Assembly (NCBI GenBank): GCA_963666275.2
Contig: CAXXOA010000003.1
Coordinates: 256,001-320,000, forward strand
DNA length: 64,000 nt
DNA from: Oceanispirochaeta sp.
GTDB lineage: Bacteria; Spirochaetota; Spirochaetia; DSM-2461
Direction: 5' to 3'
Shown here: positions 9,588 through 24,047 of the stretch, piece after piece
Layout of the letters: each line of letters starts with the position of its first letter
How positions within the stretch are numbered: the stretch's first letter is position 1
Notes under the pieces: generated by a model
The model's input: the letters and a program-made list of their open reading frames with translations, nothing else
What the model was told of the DNA's origin: nothing
Databases searched by the model: none
Made by a program: the position numbers and the translations under genes

Positions 9588-10550
9588 ATGAAAAAAAGCA
9601 CTTTTTTCGTAATGGCAGCACTGACTGTCTTTTCATTCACAGCTCTGTTTGCAAACGGACAGACTGACAAGCCTTATCCTACAGCCGGTGACGTTAAGGT
9701 AATTATCCCCAAAGGGGCCGGTGGTGGAACAGATACTTCTGCCAGAGGAATGCTTCAGTTCCTTGGAAAGAAAATCGAAGGCGTTAGTTTTGTTCCGGTT
9801 AACAAACCCGACGGAGGCGGAGTAACGGGTATGGTTGAAACCGCTCATGCTAAACCCGATGGTTATACACTTGGCATGGTAACAGTTGAACTGGCCATGT
9901 TTCCCCATCAGGGAAAATCTCCTGTGACTTTTGCCGATTATGCTCCTATTGCCGCTCCCATTGCCGCTCCGGCTGCCTTGATTGTACCTGCAGATGCTCC
10001 TTACAGCACATTGGACGAATTCGCTGCCTACTGTGAAGCCAATCCCGGTAAAGTACAGGTTGGAAACTCCGGAATGGGTGCTATCTGGCATATAGCTGCG
10101 ATGAAGTTTGAGGAAGAATTCGGAGTTAAGGTTAAACATGTTCCCTATCCTAACGGAACCGCTGATATTGTAGCAGCTCTTCTGGGTGGACATATCGATG
10201 CTACCTTCGCAGATCCTTCAGGAATCAAAGGTCAGTATGAAGCCGGTCAGGTAAAAATTATTGCTTCCATGGCTGGACAGAGATCCAATATCTTTCCCGA
10301 TGTTCCTACTTTCAAAGAACTGGGACATGATCTGACGATTCGTGCCTGGGCTGCTCTGGTTGCACCCAAAGACACTCCTGCTGATGTTCTGAAAATCCTT
10401 CGTGATGCAGCAACTGAATGCTATAATGATCCTGCCTACATCGACTACTTCGTTAAACAGGGAATTGATCCTACCAATATTGTTGGTGATGAATGTTTTA
10501 AAATGATGGAACAGGATCATAAACTGTATGAAGTAATGCTGAAAAAGTAA
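9588..10550 (+). CDS. tctC: Tripartite tricarboxylate transporter substrate-binding protein (TctC/Bug)
   Basis: P.GAGGGTD..AR, NKP.GGG..G, KPDGYTL, PDVPTF.ELG. Confidence 0.92.
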   Translation: MKKSTFFVMAALTVFSFTALFANGQTDKPYPTAGDVKVIIPKGAGGGTDTSARGMLQFLGKKIEGVSFVPVNKPDGGGVTGMVETAHAKPDGYTLGMVTVELAMFPHQGKSPVTFADYAPIAAPIAAPAALIVPADAPYSTLDEFAAYCEANPGKVQVGNSGMGAIWHIAAMKFEEEFGVKVKHVPYPNGTADIVAALLGGHIDATFADPSGIKGQYEAGQVKIIASMAGQRSNIFPDVPTFKELGHDLTIRAWAALVAPKDTPADVLKILRDAATECYNDPAYIDYFVKQGIDPTNIVGDECFKMMEQDHKLYEVMLKK

Positions 10551-13610: not shown

Positions 13611-13703
13611 TTTTAACACCGATTTCTGCTGTTTGCCGAAAGCTGGCGTGGTCGTTGCAAATGCAAGGACCATGACAGTAGGCAAATCAGTAGCAAATTT
13701 TTG
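13611..13703 (-). repeat. attC-4 (99 bp when rejoined with 15902-15907; split by intron 1)
   Basis: Top strand ATATAAC-AAAAATTT(G)CTACTG(A)TTTGCC...GGCAAACAGCAGAAAT-CGGT-GTTAAAA. Confidence 0.85.
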
Positions 13704-15901
13704 GTACGCCTGACATGGCAATAAACTTATGAGGTGAAAGTCCTCTACAGCTACCCACGTATAGTAAACATGCTATACCAACTGTTAGCCGACGGCAAGG
13801 GCAATTCCGTGAGGAATTGTCTGGAGGAAGCCTGAGTGCAAAACCGGGAGCCCATGTACAAGAATGTGATATGGAATGCGAGTCACGCAGCATTCCACCC
13901 CCCAGTTCTGGAGGCTGGTCGCAAACAAGTTTGCTGCTCGCCCATGCAGCCTAGGGTGAGTCAGCCAATGATGACGATGCCCCGTGGGTGAGGGATAGGG
14001 TAAATCACAGGGTTGTCCGGCCCTGGTCGTAAACTTCGTTTACTGCTCGGGTATGCATCCGAGGAAAGTTTATTGTCTTATTCGGGAACCGAAAGCCGTT
14101 TCGGCTGGAGGTTGTTATTCAAGCGGCATGGCCGCAACCTTAACGAACACAGATCGAAGCAGCTTGCTGCGTAGAACTTTATTCGGGGAGATCTGTCTGC
14201 AAGGCGGTAACGGCGGTTTGACCGTGAGAATCCGGAGGATACCGGGGTAACAAATCCAGGCCTATCAGGGGATGACACTCTGATAAGGAGCCGTTTATAC
14301 GGAACACAAAGAAGTCGTCACAGCGATTCAAACCGGATGATACAGCGTCAGCAGGAGTAATTCTACTGATAAGCAGACAGAAGTCAGCAGAAGGCATAGT
14401 AGCCAACGCCCGGAGTAATGTCCGGTTCATGGTGAAGGTCTGAACATTTCACAAGGAGGAGCCTTATGGTTCTCAAAGGAACAATTTCAGTTTATGCCGG
14501 AATCACTTTTGGCGGACCATGGAGAAACCAGCCTTGAACGAATCTATGATGGATTTGATTTTATCCTCTGAAAATATGCACAAAGCCTGGAAACAGGTCA
14601 AACGCAATGGAGGTAGCCCTGGAATCGACGGTATCACTGTCGAGAAGTTTCCAGGATATCTGAAAACCAGATGGCCTAGAATCAAACGAGCTTTGCTCAA
14701 CGGGTACTATGTACCTTCTCCGGTGCTGAGGGTAGAAATCCCGAAGAAATCCGGAGGAAAACGGATGCTGGGAATCCCGACAGTTCTAGACAGGGTTATC
14801 CAGCAGGCTATTTCACAGGTTCTGAATCCCATATTTGATCCGGATTTCTCGGAGCATAGCTATGGATTCAGACCGGGAAGATCGGCTCACGGAGCAGTGA
14901 AACAGGTAAATCAACATGTCAAATCCGGGTATAGATACGCCGTGGATCTGGACTTGGAAAAGTTCTTTGATACAGTTAATCATGATATCCTGATGCATTT
15001 TGTGGCTGTAAAAGTCTGGGACAAATCTGTCCTCAGACTCATCGGCCGTTACCTGAGAGCCGGTATTCAGTTGGACAATGGAAAAGTGATTCCTACAGAC
15101 ATCGGCACACCCCAAGGCGGGCCCTTATCACCTCTGCTTTCCAATATCCTCCTTGATCGGTTGGATATGGAACTGGAGAGAAGAAATGTGAGGTTCGCAC
15201 GGTATGCAGATGACACTATCCTTTTAACGAAGAGATTGTGTGATGCTAGGAAGATCCTACAGGAAGTTTCAATATTTCTGGTAAGGAAATTGAAATTGGT
15301 AGTGAATCAGGAGAAAACGAAAGTTGCAAAGATAAGGGAGTGCAGTTTCCTGGGATTCACATTCAAGGGTAAGAAGATTCGCTGGACAGAGTCGTCCTTT
15401 GAGGATTTTCGGTATCATCTGAAATATCTGACAAGGCGTTCCTGGGGTGTTTCCATGGAATACAGAATCGGGAAACTCAATGAGTATATCCGGGGCTGGA
15501 TGAACTACTATGGGATCTCCCAATATTACAGCCCTTTACAGAACCTTGATGACTGGCTCCGTAGGAGGATTCGCATGTGTTACTGGAAACAGTGGCGATA
15601 TCCCAGAACGAAAGTCAGGAAACTGATGGAACTGGGGATTCCGAAAGATTTTGCCATTATCACCGGTGCCAGTAGTAAATCCTATTGGCATCTCTCCAAG
15701 TCTTACGCTACCAATGCAGCTATGTCCAATAAATGGCTGGAAGAGCAGGGATTGGTCAATATCAAATATCTGTGGTGTAAAGCCCAGGGATATATCTGAT
15801 CAAATCAGGATTTCGTTTGCTCCATGGAGTGAACCGCCCCGTGCGGACCCGCATGCGGGGTGGTGTGGGGGCTGGAGGTTAAAAGCCTCCGGCTACCCGA
15901 T
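13704..15901 (+). mobile_element. Group II intron, class C (IIC-attC type), copy 1, 2198 nt
   Basis: 5' GTACGCCTGACATGG; DV GAACCGCCCCGTGCGGACCCGCATGCGGGGTGGTGTG with CGC triad; 3' end CTACCCGAT; removal restores TTG|TTATAT of attC R''. Confidence 0.92.
14519..15799 (+). CDS. ltrA: Group II intron reverse transcriptase/maturase, no endonuclease domain
   Basis: PGIDG, R.LGIPT..DR..Q.A, SYGFRPGRS, DLEKFFD, GTPQGGPLSPLLSN, RYADD, FLGF, GW.NYY. Confidence 0.95.
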   Translation: MEKPALNESMMDLILSSENMHKAWKQVKRNGGSPGIDGITVEKFPGYLKTRWPRIKRALLNGYYVPSPVLRVEIPKKSGGKRMLGIPTVLDRVIQQAISQVLNPIFDPDFSEHSYGFRPGRSAHGAVKQVNQHVKSGYRYAVDLDLEKFFDTVNHDILMHFVAVKVWDKSVLRLIGRYLRAGIQLDNGKVIPTDIGTPQGGPLSPLLSNILLDRLDMELERRNVRFARYADDTILLTKRLCDARKILQEVSIFLVRKLKLVVNQEKTKVAKIRECSFLGFTFKGKKIRWTESSFEDFRYHLKYLTRRSWGVSMEYRIGKLNEYIRGWMNYYGISQYYSPLQNLDDWLRRRIRMCYWKQWRYPRTKVRKLMELGIPKDFAIITGASSKSYWHLSKSYATNAAMSNKWLEEQGLVNIKYLWCKAQGYI

Positions 15902-15915
15902 TTATATAGCAATTA

Positions 15916-17584: not shown

Positions 17585-17679
17585 ATATAACATTCTTTTA
17601 TGCTGCTGCTCGTTAAGTTGGCGTGGTCATTGCGCATTGCAATGAGCATGACAATAGAGCAGACAGTATCAAAAGCTTG
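17585..17679 (-). repeat. attC-3 (101 bp when rejoined with 19812-19817; split by intron 2)
   Basis: Top strand ATATAAC-AAGCTTTT(G)ATACTG(T)CTGCTC...GAGCAGCAGCATAAAAG-AAT-GTTATAT; the cassette gene's TAA lies within R''. Confidence 0.88.
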
Positions 17680-19811
17680 GTACGCCTGACATGGCAATAA
17701 ACTTATGAGGTGAAAGTCCTCTACAGCTACCCACGTATAGTAAACATGCTATACCAACTGTTAGCCGACGGCAAGGGCAATTCCGTGAGGAATTGTCTGG
17801 AGGAAGCCTGAGTGCAAAACCGGGAGCCCATGCACAAGAATGTGATAGAAGGCCCAGTTCCGGAGGCGAGTCAGCCAATGATGACGATGCCCCGTGGGTG
17901 AGGGATAGGGTAAATCACAGGGTTGTCCGACCCTGGTCGTAAACTTCGTTTACTGCTCGGGTATGCATCCGAGGAAAGTTTATTGTCTTATTCGGGAACC
18001 GAAAGCCGTTTCGGCTGGAGGTTTTTATTCAAGCGGCATGGCCGTAACCTTAACGAACACAGATCGAAGCAGCTTGCTGCGTAGATCTTTATTCGGGGAG
18101 ATCTGTCTGCAAGGCGGTAACGGCGGTTTGACCGTGAGAATCCGGAGGATACCGGGGTAACAAATCCAGGCCTATCAGGGGATGACACTCTGATAAGGAG
18201 CCGTTTATACGGAACACAAAGAAGTCGTCACAGCGATTCAAACCGGATGATACAGCGTCAGCAGGAGTAATTCTACTGATAAGCAGACAGAAGTCAGCAG
18301 AAGGCATAGTAGCCAACGCCCGGAGTAATGTCCGGTTCATGGTGAAGGTCTGAACATTTCACAAGGAGGAGCCTTATGGTTCTCAAAGGAACAATTTCAG
18401 TTTATGCCGGAATCACTTTTGGCGGACCATGGAGAAACCAGCCTTGAACGAATCTATGATGGATTTGATTTTATCCTCTGAAAATATGCACAAAGCCTGG
18501 AAACAGGTCAAACGCAATGGAGGTAGCCCTGGAATCGACGGTATCACTGTCGAGAAGTTTCCAGGATATCTGAAAACCAGATGGCCTAGAATCAAACGAG
18601 CTTTGCTCAACGGGTACTATGTACCTTCTCCGGTGCTGAGGGTAGAAATCCCGAAGAAATCCGGAGGAAAACGGATGCTGGGAATCCCGACAGTTCTAGA
18701 CAGGGTTATCCAGCAGGCTATTTCACAGGTTCTGAATCCCATATTTGATCCGGATTTCTCGGAGCATAGCTATGGATTCAGACCGGGAAGATCGGCTCAC
18801 GGAGCAGTGAAACAGGTAAATCAACATGTCAAATCCGGGTATAGATACGCCGTGGATCTGGACTTGGAAAAGTTCTTTGATACAGTTAATCATGATATCC
18901 TGATGCATTTTGTGGCTGTAAAAGTCTGGGACAAATCTGTCCTCAGACTCATCGGCCGTTACCTGAGAGCCGGTATTCAGTTGGACAATGGAAAAGTGAT
19001 TCCTACAGACATCGGCACACCCCAAGGCGGGCCCTTATCACCTCTGCTTTCCAATATCCTCCTTGATCGGTTGGATATGGAACTGGAGAGAAGAAATGTG
19101 AGGTTCGCACGGTATGCAGATGACACTATCCTTTTAACGAAGAGATTGTGTGATGCTAGGAAGATCCTACAGGAAGTTTCAATATTTCTGGTAAGGAAAT
19201 TGAAATTGGTAGTGAATCAGGAGAAAACGAAAGTTGCAAAGATAAGGGAGTGCAGTTTCCTGGGATTCACATTCAAGGGTAAGAAGATTCGCTGGACAGA
19301 GTCGTCCTTTGAGGATTTTCGGTATCATCTGAAATATCTGACAAGGCGTTCCTGGGGTGTTTCCATGGAATACAGAATCGGGAAACTCAATGAGTATATC
19401 CGGGGCTGGATGAACTACTATGGGATCTCCCAATATTACAGCCCTTTACAGAACCTTGATGACTGGCTCCGTAGGAGGATTCGCATGTGTTACTGGAAAC
19501 AGTGGCGATATCCCAGAACGAAAGTCAGGAAACTGATGGAACTGGGGATTCCGAAAGATTTTGCCATTATCACCGGTGCCAGTAGTAAATCCTATTGGCA
19601 TCTCTCCAAGTCTTACGCTACCAATGCAGCTATGTCCAATAAATGGCTGGAAGAGCAGGGATTGGTCAATATCAAATATCTGTGGTGTAAAGCCCAGGGA
19701 TATATCTGATCAAATCAGGATTTCGTTTGCTCCATGGAGTGAACCGCCCCGTGCGGACCCGCATGCGGGGTGGTGTGGGGGCTGGAGGTTAAAAGCCTCC
19801 GGCTACCCGAT
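17680..19811 (+). mobile_element. Group II intron, class C (IIC-attC type), copy 2, 2132 nt
   Basis: Same boundaries and DV/DVI as copy 1; 66 nt shorter in domain I. Confidence 0.92.
18429..19709 (+). CDS. ltrA: Group II intron reverse transcriptase/maturase (protein identical to copy 1)
   Basis: Same 426-aa translation with RYADD. Confidence 0.95.
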   Translation: MEKPALNESMMDLILSSENMHKAWKQVKRNGGSPGIDGITVEKFPGYLKTRWPRIKRALLNGYYVPSPVLRVEIPKKSGGKRMLGIPTVLDRVIQQAISQVLNPIFDPDFSEHSYGFRPGRSAHGAVKQVNQHVKSGYRYAVDLDLEKFFDTVNHDILMHFVAVKVWDKSVLRLIGRYLRAGIQLDNGKVIPTDIGTPQGGPLSPLLSNILLDRLDMELERRNVRFARYADDTILLTKRLCDARKILQEVSIFLVRKLKLVVNQEKTKVAKIRECSFLGFTFKGKKIRWTESSFEDFRYHLKYLTRRSWGVSMEYRIGKLNEYIRGWMNYYGISQYYSPLQNLDDWLRRRIRMCYWKQWRYPRTKVRKLMELGIPKDFAIITGASSKSYWHLSKSYATNAAMSNKWLEEQGLVNIKYLWCKAQGYI

Positions 19812-21839
19812 TTATATCTCACTTTCCAATGTCCTTATTTCATCCTCTAAAAAAAGAATTTCCTTTTCTTGTTTGAGTTTTGTCTCATTACTAAAGTTAT
19901 TTCTTTTAAATATTTTCCTTAATATATTCTCATTTTTACGTGATAATATTTTTTTAATATTTGGAGTTCGTTCTTTTATTATGATAAAAATTAGAGAAAG
20001 AATATGAGGAGAAAAGGATAATAGAGTTGCATACTTCTCGACACTATTCCAGTTTATTCTTTTAATTGCTAAAAATGAAATTAAGTAAATCATAACTATT
20101 GTAAAAACTAAAATATGTTTTCTTCTATTAATTCTTTTATTAGCTAAGGCTCGAAGTTCTTTTTCATCATTGAGGGTTTTACTGAAATCAACTTTTAGTT
20201 TTTCTAGTAATATTTTTTTAGAACTGATTGAGCTTTTCGTTGCTTCGATGTATTTCAATTCTAAGTCACTCATTGATTGTTGAAGTTTACTATTCTTATC
20301 TTTATTGAGCTCTGCTTCCTGTTTAAAATGCTCTTCTTGAATAAGATATTTTTCTAAAGAATCTTCTGTAATATTAACCAATACTTCTTCAGCATTATCT
20401 TCATTAAGTATTTCTGGTTCTTTTCTTTTTTGTCTTAGATCATTAATACGATTATGCAATGTTTCTTTTGAAACTTTTTTTTGGTTAAACAGATTTTTTA
20501 CTTCTTCATACTCTTCATTAATAGAATCCCCTAAGTGTGCTGAGAGTGTTATTTTAGCTTTATTGACTACATCTACAGTATAAGGAGAATCCTGTTTACC
20601 AAAACCTTTATTCATTTTGAACCAGAATTTATTTACAAGAAAATCAAGATCTGTTGCTAAAGGGATTCCATTTTCTTCCCTAAATGATTTTGCTTCGTAG
20701 GAAATTTTAAGAGTAGTTGAAGTTCCCGTTAAAAGTATGAAGCGGGCATCCTCAAATCTATAAACAGTGGAGTTTTTCCTCAGAATATTTATATAATTTA
20801 AAAATCTAACATTATCCCTTATATCATCAAAGTCTTTTTCTTTCTCAATTTCTTCTATCTTATCCGAATCAATTAGATTATATTTATGATTTTTTTCTGA
20901 AAAATAATCTGACTCATCATCTTGAAAAATCCTATTTGTTTTGAGTAATAAATATAAATCAGATTTTTTTGTAAGTATATCTGATTTATCCTTAGCCCCA
21001 TTAAGAATTGAAGCCATAGCTGTATGTCCAGGTTTTAAGCTTTTTGTTCCCTGTTTTATTTTTTCAGCAATATAAAAGTAGCCTTCAACCTCATCTTTAA
21101 CTTCTTGGAAGTATTTTAAATGGATTTTTTCAGTTCTTTTATTAATTTCCTTAATATATGATAGTAAAGTATTAACTTGTCTTTTAAATATTGGTCCATT
21201 ATAACCAGCTAAATGAAAAAGTATTTCAGTATCCAAATATATGGTGAGTTCAGTATCCCAGGAGCCCATAAGTGAAGGATCTGTATATTTTATACCAGAG
21301 TATAGAACTACTCCTTCTTTTATACTTTGAAGATTATTATTAAACGCTTTATTCTTTTCATTCAAGATAATAAAAGTACTTATATAGTCTGAGTACTTAA
21401 ATCCATTTGTATTAAATAAAAGAAAATTACAAAATGAATTTGAAACATCCAATTTTTGGACATCAGAAAGTTTTGATTGTTGTTTTTCTTCGATAAAACA
21501 TATCAGTTGATCAATAATTGAATCAGTTTCATCAGTAACTGTTTTTTTCAGTTTTAAGATTTTAGAATTGGATTCAGCCTTTGAAATCACATTATACATA
21601 CCATATGATTTTTCTAAAAAATCAATTTTTTTAAGAGATGTTTTCACAACTGATAAAGGTAAATCGAAACTAAATTCTTCATTTATTTTTGTAGTAATCT
21701 CTTCAATGTTAAATCTATGGAGATTATTTATTATGATAGATTCTTTAGCGAACTGACGAACTACATCATAAATATCATGATCCTTTGCATACAATTCTTT
21801 AAAAATTACATATGAAGCTAAACACTTGTGATCTTTCAT
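19812..21839 (-). CDS. Cassette ORF: large protein with putative PIN-like domain, coiled coil and 2 C-terminal TM helices
   Basis: TIYLDTEILF (hhhDT), downstream acidic residues, FILLT; coiled coil around aa 490-570; two hydrophobic helices; starts 28 nt after the crossover. Confidence 0.65.
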   Translation of the reverse strand: MKDHKCLASYVIFKELYAKDHDIYDVVRQFAKESIIINNLHRFNIEEITTKINEEFSFDLPLSVVKTSLKKIDFLEKSYGMYNVISKAESNSKILKLKKTVTDETDSIIDQLICFIEEKQQSKLSDVQKLDVSNSFCNFLLFNTNGFKYSDYISTFIILNEKNKAFNNNLQSIKEGVVLYSGIKYTDPSLMGSWDTELTIYLDTEILFHLAGYNGPIFKRQVNTLLSYIKEINKRTEKIHLKYFQEVKDEVEGYFYIAEKIKQGTKSLKPGHTAMASILNGAKDKSDILTKKSDLYLLLKTNRIFQDDESDYFSEKNHKYNLIDSDKIEEIEKEKDFDDIRDNVRFLNYINILRKNSTVYRFEDARFILLTGTSTTLKISYEAKSFREENGIPLATDLDFLVNKFWFKMNKGFGKQDSPYTVDVVNKAKITLSAHLGDSINEEYEEVKNLFNQKKVSKETLHNRINDLRQKRKEPEILNEDNAEEVLVNITEDSLEKYLIQEEHFKQEAELNKDKNSKLQQSMSDLELKYIEATKSSISSKKILLEKLKVDFSKTLNDEKELRALANKRINRRKHILVFTIVMIYLISFLAIKRINWNSVEKYATLLSFSPHILSLIFIIIKERTPNIKKILSRKNENILRKIFKRNNFSNETKLKQEKEILFLEDEIRTLESEI

Positions 21840-21861: not shown

Positions 21862-22035
21862 ATATAACACTCTGATCACCTGCGCCCCGGCCTGGCCGCA
21901 GGACAGGTATTGGCGTTCTTCTTGCCATCATGGTAAAACATCTTTACTATATTGAGAAGCGATTATTTACTATTGAGTTGAAATATCAGCAAGAAGTATG
22001 ACAATAGGGGTGTCAGGTGCATCAGCATGTTATGT
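21862..22035 (-). repeat. attC-2, long type (174 bp)
   Basis: Top strand ACATAAC-ATGCTGAT(G)CACCTG-ACACCCC...GGGGCG-CAGGTGATCAG-AGT-GTTATAT. Confidence 0.85.
21922..21950 (+). promoter_or_regulatory. Candidate sigma70 promoter inside attC-2 (TTGCCA-N17-TACTAT)
   Basis: 5/6 -35 match, 17-nt spacer, TAnnnT -10; faces the plus-strand ORFs. Confidence 0.45.
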
Positions 22036-22167
22036 GAGCGTCCTTGCAGTAGTTTTGCCCCGAGCGAATATTACACTTAACAGATTATAATCTGAATTCT
22101 GTCTTCATTTGTATTTTAATGGTAATTTTAAGATATGCTTTATGATTATTGAGAAATAGGAAGTCTG

Positions 22168-22746
22168 ATGCAAAAAATAAATATTTCATTGATATTTTTC
22201 TTTCTCTTCTGTTTTTATTCTTGGGGTGAAAGCAGAATTGATGAATATCGTAGGAATTATAGTACAGCTATTATTAGCAATGATACGGAAATTATAGAAA
22301 ATACACTTTCTTTTATAGATAAATTAATCGATCAAAATGAATTTAAGGATATCTCTAGTATTTATTACAACAAAGCTCAATTGCTTAATAAGCTTAAAAG
22401 AACTGATGAAGCTATAGAGGCATTGGAGCATCTGGAATTCCCATTAAATAAATTTTATCAAGCTTCACTATTCGTCAGGATTGGACAAGAAGAAGATGCA
22501 ACAAGCTTATTTGATTCTGTTATTAATTTGTACTTAACTACTTTGAAAGAAGACGAAAGAACTAGAGACAATATACGTTCTTTATATGAAAGTATCATTT
22601 TAGCTAATATCTTAGCTGATAGAGATCAAAGACAAGTTGAAAAGATGATAAGAGATGACATAAGGCTTAGCGATTCAGATATCACTAGATTAAATAAAGC
22701 AAAAGAAGCTCAAAAGGATGCTTTATTGCAAGGGTTATGGCCATGA
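22168..22746 (+). CDS. Cassette ORF (reverse orientation): secreted TPR-like helical protein
   Basis: Signal peptide MQKINISLIFFFLFCFYSWG; YYNKAQLL..L.R.DEA TPR-like; AGGA RBS. Confidence 0.7.
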   Translation: MQKINISLIFFFLFCFYSWGESRIDEYRRNYSTAIISNDTEIIENTLSFIDKLIDQNEFKDISSIYYNKAQLLNKLKRTDEAIEALEHLEFPLNKFYQASLFVRIGQEEDATSLFDSVINLYLTTLKEDERTRDNIRSLYESIILANILADRDQRQVEKMIRDDIRLSDSDITRLNKAKEAQKDALLQGLWP

Positions 22747-22871
22747 ATAAACGGGTAGCATTGCTACTGATAACCGGATATCTGTCTACTGCTGTTAATA
22801 TATGATATATTCAAATTAGGATTCTATTACAATGTGTATTTTTAGAGTTAAACGTCATTGAAGAGAGCTTT

Positions 22872-23195
22872 ATGGATCAGAAATTATTTTACAAAAAAAA
22901 ATATCTTTACAAGATATATATGATATTACTATTCTTGAGAATTTCTTCATTTTCAATCTCTGTTTTATGGGTCCTTAGTTCTATAATAATTTTGTTTGAA
23001 CCATTTCTGTCATCGTTCCAAGTTGGTCGTGATGGTTCTATCGCGTTATTTAGTTTTGCGATTGATAATATTGGAAGAAATATCAGTATTTTAGCAATAT
23101 TAGTTACTATAACAATATTTTTTGTCTTCTTATCAAAAGCTTTCAAGAAACGGAACCATGAAATAATTGATTATTGGAGTTTGGGAAGGTATTAA
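22872..23195 (+). CDS. Cassette ORF (reverse orientation): small 2-TM protein
   Basis: Two hydrophobic segments; follows 22168..22746. Confidence 0.55.
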   Translation: MDQKLFYKKKYLYKIYMILLFLRISSFSISVLWVLSSIIILFEPFLSSFQVGRDGSIALFSFAIDNIGRNISILAILVTITIFFVFLSKAFKKRNHEIIDYWSLGRY

Positions 23196-23379
23196 ATGAT
23201 AATTACCGAGATTTATGGTAAATCGGTGCAACGACTTGGGCTTGGATTAAGCAAAATTTTCTTGTTATCAAAATACTTAATACTTCAGCAGAAAATAACT
23301 ACTGCTAAGGTTCAATTTTGTCTAATTTGAAATTTATGCTAACAAATTCCTTCTGAAGATTAACGAAATTTTCGAGTCC

Positions 23380-23551
23380 ACATAACACCAAAATATGCTG
23401 CGCAGCGGCCTGGCTTGCCAGGTATAGGCGCTTTTCTTGCCCCTTTATTCTAAACAGCTATTCCTTATTTGAGAAGAACAATTCCTTTGTCGAAGCAATT
23501 TCTGCAAGAAATGTGATCTATAGCTTCGACTGCATCATTTTTTTGTTATGC
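23380..23551 (-). repeat. attC-1, long type (172 bp)
   Basis: Top strand GCATAAC-AAAAAAAT(G)ATGCAG...CAGCATATTTTGGT-GTTATGT; internal sequence related to attC-2. Confidence 0.85.
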
Positions 23552-23779
23552 CGCAGCATTTTGTATGCCCGGAGGCCATGAAAAGGTTGAAGATTTCCAC
23601 AATCGTAGGTGAAGGCGAATTCCCTATATTCTCTACCCATTGCCAGCCGCAACCGGCGTCGATAAGTTAGTAATCAGTGTAGGTAACGAGCCATGAAACC
23701 AGGATCAAAACCCTCATAATCTGAAAAGTTACGATCAAAAAGTCAGGAAATCTACCCGTACAAAATGTGTCGATATAAC
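23545..23779 (+). ncRNA. Candidate structured RNA filling an ORF-less cassette
   Basis: Four nested helices; several non-Watson-Crick positions become G.U pairs on the plus strand; no ORF of 60 aa or more. Confidence 0.5.
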
Positions 23780-23836
23780 ATAACTTATTATGCTGTTCAG
23801 TATAATAATACTGAACTCCCTTTCACCCCCTGTCAA
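23773..23836 (-). promoter_or_regulatory. Candidate attI core (GCATAAT-N7-G|TTATAT) with Pc-like elements and a 22-bp palindrome
   Basis: GTT box with no attC hairpin upstream; minus-strand TTGACA (23831-23836), GTGAAA-N16-TATACT; GTTCAGTAT-N4-ATACTGAAC at 23795-23816. Confidence 0.5.
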
Positions 23837-24047
23837 TAACAGAAAAAAAAGAATTATCTAGACATTTACGCAGTGATAACATCCATATCCAACAGTTATC
23901 TAGACGTCTATATAATTCCGGGAATTGTTGCCAGATGGGGGAGCGGAGGGAATATACGTCTGTAAGAAAGGATATTCCGTGAAACCGGAAGAGGGATTTT
24001 TTTTTCCCGGCCGGGAATGTCCCCCGGCCGGGATGGAGTAGACGGGA

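Follow-up and report, generated by a model that had tools for sequence, protein, structure and literature searches.

A reusable integron cassette frame in Oceanispirochaeta sp. with a variable, reversed interior divided by dif-like sites

Integron cassettes are usually taken as single promoterless genes that lie in one orientation. In the stretch of Oceanispirochaeta sp. DNA analysed here (64,000 nt, G000:C3:256001-320000, hereafter the window), genes lie the opposite way in a cassette closed by a long attC site, which raises the question of how such reversed cargo is acquired and read. The original prediction for this DNA was that long attC sites form a self-expressing class of cassettes, in which the cargo is reversed and a back-facing promoter is located in the site itself.

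The array in the window comprises four attC sites without an adjoining integron integrase gene (intI), and attC-1 and attC-2 lie at its attI-like end (Table 1). This is the composition of a CALIN, in which clustered attC sites have no intI next to them. The sole integron integrase of the genome is encoded on C1 (TIGR02249 above cut-off), and the genome (G000) contains four further attC arrays. Ends resembling the attI side were observed in all four integrase-less arrays (window 23772-23900; C3:205198; C1:1288087; C2:1179968). All attC sites of the window are imperfect inverted repeats with AAC/GTT cores and an attC hairpin fold.

Table 1. Features of the integron array in the window (positions counted from the first letter of the window)
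Feature	Position	Strand	Remark
Short attC, 99 bp without intron	13611..15907	-	split by group IIC-attC intron 13704-15901 (+)
Short attC, 101 bp without intron	17585..19817	-	split by group IIC-attC intron 17680-19811 (+)
attC-2, long attC, 174 bp	21862..22035	-	hairpin fold z -6.3; closes reversed frame cassette
Back-facing sigma70-like match TTGCCA-17-TACTAT	21922..21950	+	putative; points into reversed cargo
Forward-facing sigma70-like match TTCTCA-17-TACCAT	21930..21958	-	putative; points at the 675-aa gene of the next cassette
Leader of frame cassette	22036..22067	+	25-32 nt in all three copies and in metagenome contigs
Degenerate first dif-like site	22080..22107	+	matrix score 12.6
ORF-A, 192 aa	22168..22746	+	N-terminal hydrophobic stretch, one weak TPR match
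Internal dif-like site	22763..22790	+	20/22 arm bases as in chromosomal dif; closest match in G000
ORF-B, 107 aa	22872..23195	+	hydrophobic, no family
Terminal composite site	23275..23326	+	ACTTAA(C/T)A box, 15 nt, dif-like site with 7-bp centre
Tail of frame cassette	23327..23386	+	conserved, runs to R' core
attC-1, long attC, 172 bp	23380..23551	-	hairpin fold z -2.8; closes gene-less cassette
Forward-facing sigma70-like match TTCTCA-17-TAGAAT	23447..23475	-	putative; in attC-1 loop
Gene-less cassette 1	23552..~23777	.	two conserved G+C-rich blocks at 23608-23656
attI-like region	23772..23900	-	87% identity to DNA adjoining the only intI of G000; no intI follows here

The direction of the cassettes was determined from two introns. 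According to the available text of PMC3001079, group IIC-attC introns enter attC sites on the bottom strand, opposite to the genes; the introns that split the two short sites of the window are placed in the same manner and contain a group II RT/maturase and ribozyme domains. Because the insertion point of both is G|TT on the plus strand, the plus strand is the bottom strand and the cassettes are read on the minus strand, as the original prediction had assumed. Introns of this type account for the two split sites and give the strand, but they do not account for the long sites. Their outward promoters (PMC3001079) are a further likeness, since the putative forward promoter of the long sites would likewise be tied to the site and serve the next cassette. 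The RT ORFs of the two introns are identical and their 5' domains are unequal in length. At least 11 full-length group II intron copies were observed in the arrays of G000, together with remnants in which an attC is fused to the intron 3' end only or a 3' remnant occupies the expected place of an attC (C2:1173749-1173876, C2:1166314-1166911, C1:1032512, C1:1034514, and C3:182668). Between window positions 10000 and 26000, Rfam returned group II intron families only.

The two size classes of attC sites, 174 and 172 bp versus 99 and 101 bp, were found with the lengths and arms that had been described. The apical parts of attC-1 and attC-2 are indeed related (60% identity over 63 nt, equalled in 0 of 500 shuffles), and both short sites close normally oriented, minus-strand genes. 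Size classes inside one array are known in Treponema (PMC3607928, in its accessible part). The long sites found here span 157-181 bp versus the range of 57-141 bp cited in the part of PMC5027507 that was available. An inverted insertion of a normal cassette was considered for the attC-2 cassette and ruled out, the polarity of attC-2 being that of its neighbours.

Reversed cargo had been ascribed to both long sites, and this holds for attC-2, which closes two plus-strand ORFs, but not for attC-1. In the cassette closed by attC-1, neither strand contains an ORF that reaches 50 aa, and the 30-aa plus-strand ORF present there lacks conservation in six homologues, with loss of the start; cassette 1 is therefore gene-less rather than reversed. 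In the homologues the spacing between the two G+C-rich blocks shifts by 2 or 3 bases, the blocks themselves being near-invariant. Among the 38 genomes searched, four others contain the family (G009 with seven copies, G010 with three, G005 with two, and G004 with one); it is often first in its array, and every copy checked is closed by a long attC. The block gave 0 matches in viral contigs, and the homologues at five loci gave no Rfam match. A structured RNA was also considered; the consensus fold of 6-7 pairs with one covarying pair was too little to retain it. Gene-less promoter cassettes, often first in the array, have been described in Treponema and Vibrionaceae, with sense and antisense promoters and some transcription starts mapped inside an attC (PMC6557892 and 10.1101/2023.11.21.568050, in the parts available). 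Cassette 1 shares with them the absence of a conserved ORF. The difference lies in the place of the promoter, which in those cassettes is in the cassette body, whereas the candidate promoter found here would occupy a fixed place in the long-attC loop.

The association between attC length and cargo orientation was then assessed in a larger set. Two covariance models, built from 17 short and 12 long sites, were used to search 11 and 38 genomes, and the best 150 or best 73 candidates per genome were scored, site numbers being lower bounds. Among the matches listed, 136 sites from eight genomes of the genus were classified by hand, with sites of 150 bp or more counted as long; the tally left out G003, G006, G007, other genera, and several small contigs. 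The 43 long sites among the matches listed comprised 23 with normal cargo, 15 gene-less, 4 reversed, and 1 unclear, and the 93 short sites comprised 89 normal, 2 reversed, none gene-less, and 2 unclassifiable. Gene-less cassettes were accordingly found at 15/42 long versus 0/91 short sites among the matches listed, many of them copies. Reversed cargo was commoner at long sites by count (4/27 versus 2/91 gene-bearing sites listed, Fisher p 0.024), a point in favour of the original prediction. All four reversed long sites and a fifth, decayed one belong to a single nine-member attC-2 clade (support 98), so that the reversals suggest about one event, and four members of the same clade in G002 close normal toxin-antitoxin or gene-less cassettes. 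Of the 27 gene-bearing long sites listed, 23 close normal cargo, and attC length does not predict cargo orientation. By eye, toxin-antitoxin-like pairs were seen in 7 of the 23 normal long-site cassettes (G000, G002, G010, and G011). Reversed cargo also occurs behind short sites: a second reversed frame family (G010:C1:2395582 and 3066233; L212 and L210) consists of 100-bp attC sites with a common leader, and the two sites close different reversed Rhs-core genes with downstream partners.

Promoter matches in the long sites were scored with a sigma70 matrix, which was fitted on 2456 upstream regions of G000 and seeded with the consensus. The motif TTGCCA-17-TACTAT was found in attC-2 at the place and in the direction that had been claimed, toward the two ORFs of the cassette. 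Matches at 9 of 12 consensus positions are not rare in this DNA (16 in 2.15 kb versus 9.0 +/- 3.6 in shuffles). The back-facing scores of the attC-2 copy in the window (W) and of its two other copies in the genome (Y and X, described below) were 12.9, 12.9, and 11.6, with shuffles as high in 3/60, 0/60, and 0/60 cases, and the 90th percentile of upstream regions was 11.8. One other of the 43 long sites listed reaches a comparable back-facing score (11.9). The equivalent promoter that had been suggested in attC-1 was not borne out, the best score being 1.1 and equalled or beaten by 60 of 60 shuffles. Four attC-2 homologues of G002, with normal or no cargo, lack the T at -12 and score 8.4-9.0, and the two G005 homologues with reversed cargo are without the back-facing motif. 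Because these homologues and attC-1 lack the motif, a back-facing promoter is plausible only for the attC-2 lineage of G000, where the chance that it is active appears evenly balanced.

These results bear directly on the explanation that long attC sites are a self-expressing class with reversed cargo. The high back-facing scores of the three attC-2 copies and the excess of reversed cargo at long sites agree with it, and in this narrow form, limited to the three copies, it stands. As a rule it fails, because reversed cargo accounts for only 4 of 27 gene-bearing long sites listed and comes from one clade, attC-1 has neither reversed cargo nor the motif, and 100-bp sites close reversed Rhs-type cargo. 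The explanation is largely refuted and is regarded as very improbable.

For the notion that an attC site may double as a promoter, the forward direction has better support than the back-facing one. In attC-2 the forward match (21958-21930, minus) overlaps the back-facing one (21922-21950, plus). Among 21 dereplicated long types, 12 have their best forward match at a common aligned position of the loop, the spacer being 17 nt, and with anchoring on the stem and the -10 element the pattern TT-17-TAnnnT was present in 13/20 types, one type being without the anchor. The TT columns of the -35 element are kept at 0.75 and 0.85 versus a spacer mean of 0.51, the types being kin, and two other columns also reach 0.75; TT occurs at 17 nt in 15/20 types, and other offsets gave 11, 9, and no more than 3. 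The forward -35 element lacks the consensus G. Among the intact hold-outs, 1/7 passed the strict forward test and about 3/7 a looser one judged by eye, two of the seven representing another long family. The bias of scores toward the forward direction is not usable as evidence because short sites show it too (p 0.003 versus 0.006 for long sites). The forward promoter in the attC loop is slightly more likely than not to be active. For Vibrio cassettes, the available part of 10.1101/2023.11.21.568050 reports that in silico promoter scores failed to predict activity. A leader promoter was also rejected for the frame cassette, the scores being 4.8, 9.1, and 4.3 without conservation.

Three copies of attC-2, 93-94% identical, are present in G000, namely W, X (C3:203937), and Y (C2:1169806). 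All of them close reversed multi-gene cargo, and the cassettes have the same two ends, different genes, and differing downstream neighbours. What they have in common is the 25-32 nt that follow the attC and a final stretch of 60-80 nt that runs up to the next site, and the copies diverge by 6-7% in attC and by about 15% in the shared flanks. Of 38 genomes, only this one contained the complete frame. Outside this genome, the leader (22046-22067) was joined to the tail (23344-23373) at five joints in contigs of two metagenomes from other studies; the interiors are other or unknown, and the short sides of the joints measure only 28-42 letters. The X4 contig, which matches 22018-22789, ends at the dif-like site with only 12 further letters, and may be taken as suggestive only. 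A reusable frame with a variable interior is very probably a real architecture.

The cargo proteins gave few relatives. The search with the ORF-A protein returned one 93% relative among 154 candidates, and matches were detected in 2 of 300 other genomes: a homologue in G005 (36%) directly before a dif-like site of the terminal type, with no attC found nearby, and another in G130 (32%) after an Rhs gene. The 92-aa module had no match in 300 other genomes, Atlas protein matches were TPR-like or weak, and protein-family searches of the cargo proteins revealed no immunity family.

Throughout W, X, and Y the genes are separated by a 28-bp motif, which faces the same direction as the cargo and resembles dif, the chromosome's own unlinking site. 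A candidate dif was located at C1:1962570; the point of maximal cumulative GC skew on C1 is 635 bp away, and the identical sequence was present in five relatives, once each among the matches listed; the site is thus the chromosomal dif by inference. When the 22 arm bases were compared over 5.27 Mb, one site differed from dif at 2 positions (22763), one at 3 (in X), and four at 4, one of which lies in Y. Three of these six sites, including the two best, are distributed one per frame cassette, and the three cassettes make up 0.07% of the genome. A matrix from 25 sites of other genomes gave 34.8 for dif and 30.6, 29.7, and 27.9 for W, X, and Y, respectively, which are the top ranks; its training sites were chosen by likeness to dif via a pattern partly shaped on cassette sites, and the count of arm mismatches is the cleaner test. 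A loose dif-like pattern was discarded, its 88 matches being mostly chance. A small hairpin over the XerC-side arm of the internal site (22755-22767, minus) was flagged as terminator-like.

Such motifs could be chance matches in A+T-rich cassette DNA, and three other cassettes of 135 do hold a single match each, with scores of 18-23 and on the opposite strand. The three best matrix matches apart from dif, on the other hand, fall one per frame cassette, between genes, and in one orientation. Each frame cassette also ends in a composite site, in which the spacing from box to dif-like site is exactly 15 nt. The pattern of this terminal site matched G000 three times, once per frame cassette, versus one control match; matches were also obtained in 11 of the 37 remaining genomes, in some of them no more than chance would give. 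Chance is considered a negligible explanation.

The sites also coincide with a boundary of homology. A module common to X and Y (84-86% identity) begins at the first base of the XerD-side arm and ends one base past the next XerC-side arm. The names of the arms follow the E. coli layout. In the part of PMC13141974 that was available, crossover between dif modules needs identical or near-identical spacers. The centres inside one frame cassette differ, which counts against a reading with two tiers of recombination; centres such as CCGGAT and CTAGGT begin with the four bases that are commonest in relatives (CCGG 5/30 and CTAG 4/30). Several sites are degenerate, in copy X no first site exceeded the threshold, and in copy Y one module is a deletion remnant beside an IS.

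These signs of decay would fit a fossil capture: an empty cassette would have taken up part of a free-standing dif-like island a single time, recombinases would no longer act on the sites, and the copies would have diverged later by homologous exchange or gene conversion at short repeats. The degenerate first sites, the mismatched centres, and the deleted module with its IS in Y are in agreement with this explanation, as is the lack of a free-standing array in G000 among the top matrix matches. Against it, 18-20 of the 22 dif bases are retained at the internal sites despite divergence of 6-7% in attC and about 15% in the flanks, and two metagenomes contain the frame again around other interiors. 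A fossil capture is judged unlikely, and site-specific crossover as the source of the cargo variety is fairly probable. That recombination at the sites still goes on appears doubtful.

Arrays of the same design occur outside integrons. In G002, G005, and G007, free-standing arrays of small genes in the same direction end in the composite site, with no attC found around them, and in four of them the box spacing is identical to that of the frame cassettes. Their cargo includes GNAT, NUDIX, and DUF952 genes. They were located at G002:C1:410570-416992, in G005 on C94, C96, C104, C125, C127, and C135, and in G007 on C98 and C123; their centres recur, and several adjoin primase fragments or parA and replication-like genes. 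In two G005 homologues of attC-2, the attC is separated by 68 and 76 nt from a dif-like site (scores of 17.4 and 8.0), behind which a reversed gene follows.

The XerC-like and XerD-like genes of G000 are intact, and their best matches are XerC and XerD, with scores just under the NCBIfam cut-offs for both. Given two intact genes and sites that match dif in both arms, host XerC/XerD would be the likeliest enzyme, and we put their involvement at about an even chance. On the chromosome, Xer normally acts only with FtsK or an activator (PMC9226527), which counts against the two-tier reading. Alternatively, the inner array could be mobile via an element-encoded tyrosine recombinase, acting alone or with one host Xer protein, a hybrid case of which is known in Tn6022 (PMC11014353, available part). 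An integrase and IS91-family transposase pair adjoins the reversed example in G005, and the fixed extra box suggests another binding protein. A repeated element in G000 (C2:1-16500 and C3:1800-6200) also contains tandem Xer-like integrase genes with primase and ParA, in addition to an Rhs-core gene, toxin-antitoxin pairs, and back-to-back dif-like sites related to those of the frame, whose centres measure 6 and 7 bp. The likeness to the host dif, however, extends over both arms rather than one, and no recombinase gene was found in the three frame cassettes or beside most of the free-standing arrays examined. An element-encoded enzyme is therefore rated as rather improbable.

Taken together, the preferred reading, which is judged just probable, is that an Xer-type module array is nested in an integron cassette and is probably read from the attC-2 promoter. 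The outer tier would be an IntI-mobile cassette with a fixed frame of attC-2, leader, and tail in an integrase-less array, and the presence of three copies in three arrays suggests that IntI of the C1 integron moves the whole frame. The inner tier would consist of single-gene modules on the bottom strand between same-direction dif-like sites, closed by a composite terminal site, a design that appears to be that of the free-standing arrays in sister species. Modules would be gained, lost, and swapped by crossover at the dif-like sites. The array may have entered the cassette in reverse, so that later modules would inherit the orientation and attC length would not be its cause. By the dif-module rule in the available part of PMC13141974, the differing neighbouring centres would block excision and keep the array stable, and centres like the commonest in relatives would fit exchange with an outside pool. 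In the attC-2 loop, the back-facing sigma70 match probably reads the modules, and the older forward match would read the next cassette. That all of this forms a working two-tier device, with a platform moved by IntI, filled by Xer, and served by a two-way promoter in the attC loop, is a tentative proposition that we hold to be more doubtful than the nested array itself.

The outer tier resembles CALINs and sedentary chromosomal integrons in its attC hairpins, R boxes, bottom-strand asymmetry, attI-like end, and distant intI, and differs from their cassettes in that one cassette is multi-gene, reversed, and internally modular. The inner tier resembles the dif (pdif) modules and islands of Acinetobacter, for which the parts of PMC13141974 and PMC12907356 available describe 28-bp dif-like sites of 11+6+11 layout with variable centres, and one or a few genes between sites in modules recurring in different company. 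The internal sites found here have the 11+6+11 layout and the terminal site has a 7-bp centre; XerC-like and XerD-like proteins are both encoded in G000, and pdif modules depend on XerC and XerD for movement. In Acinetobacter, pdif sites alternate between C/D and D/C (PMC13141974 and PMC12907356, same parts), whereas all sites here face one way, and the near-identical spacers described in PMC13141974 have no counterpart in the unlike neighbouring centres. Further differences from Acinetobacter are the terminal site with its 7-bp centre and extra box, and the position of the array inside an integron cassette in a spirochaete. With non-alternating sites and unmatched spacers, the frame interior appears to work like a dif-module array without being a member of that group.

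The rAID arrays of Bacteroidales are alike in their co-oriented short A+T-rich genes and conserved intergenic motifs (PMC12247911, available part), and a homologue of one frame cargo gene directly follows an Rhs gene. Systems of the rAID type have their own upstream tyrosine recombinase (PMC12247911), unlike the three frame cassettes, and the cargo of arrays related to the frame cassettes is not immunity-only (GNAT, NUDIX, and DUF952). In the open main texts searched, no report was found of dif-like arrays in a cassette or of a fixed attC-loop promoter.

A fixed frame with an exchangeable interior would be one concrete answer to how new cassettes get genes, as Xer-packaged genes could enter the integron pool without the making of a new attC. 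It would connect integrons and dif modules, which have hitherto been studied apart, and would widen dif-module biology from Acinetobacter to a variant whose sites all point one way. If the forward promoter match is active, it would account for the expression of integrase-less arrays far from Pc and would give the oversized attC loop a function.

Exact-pattern scans for the core of the long site returned 70 genome and 76 metagenome stretches, nearly all of them chance; real sites were recovered only in L071/L072, L135, and L195, which were left out of the length tally. In G020 (C1:3602958-3610343), near-identical attC matches follow one another in a long series at intervals of about 399 bp, which suggests tandem copies of one short cassette.
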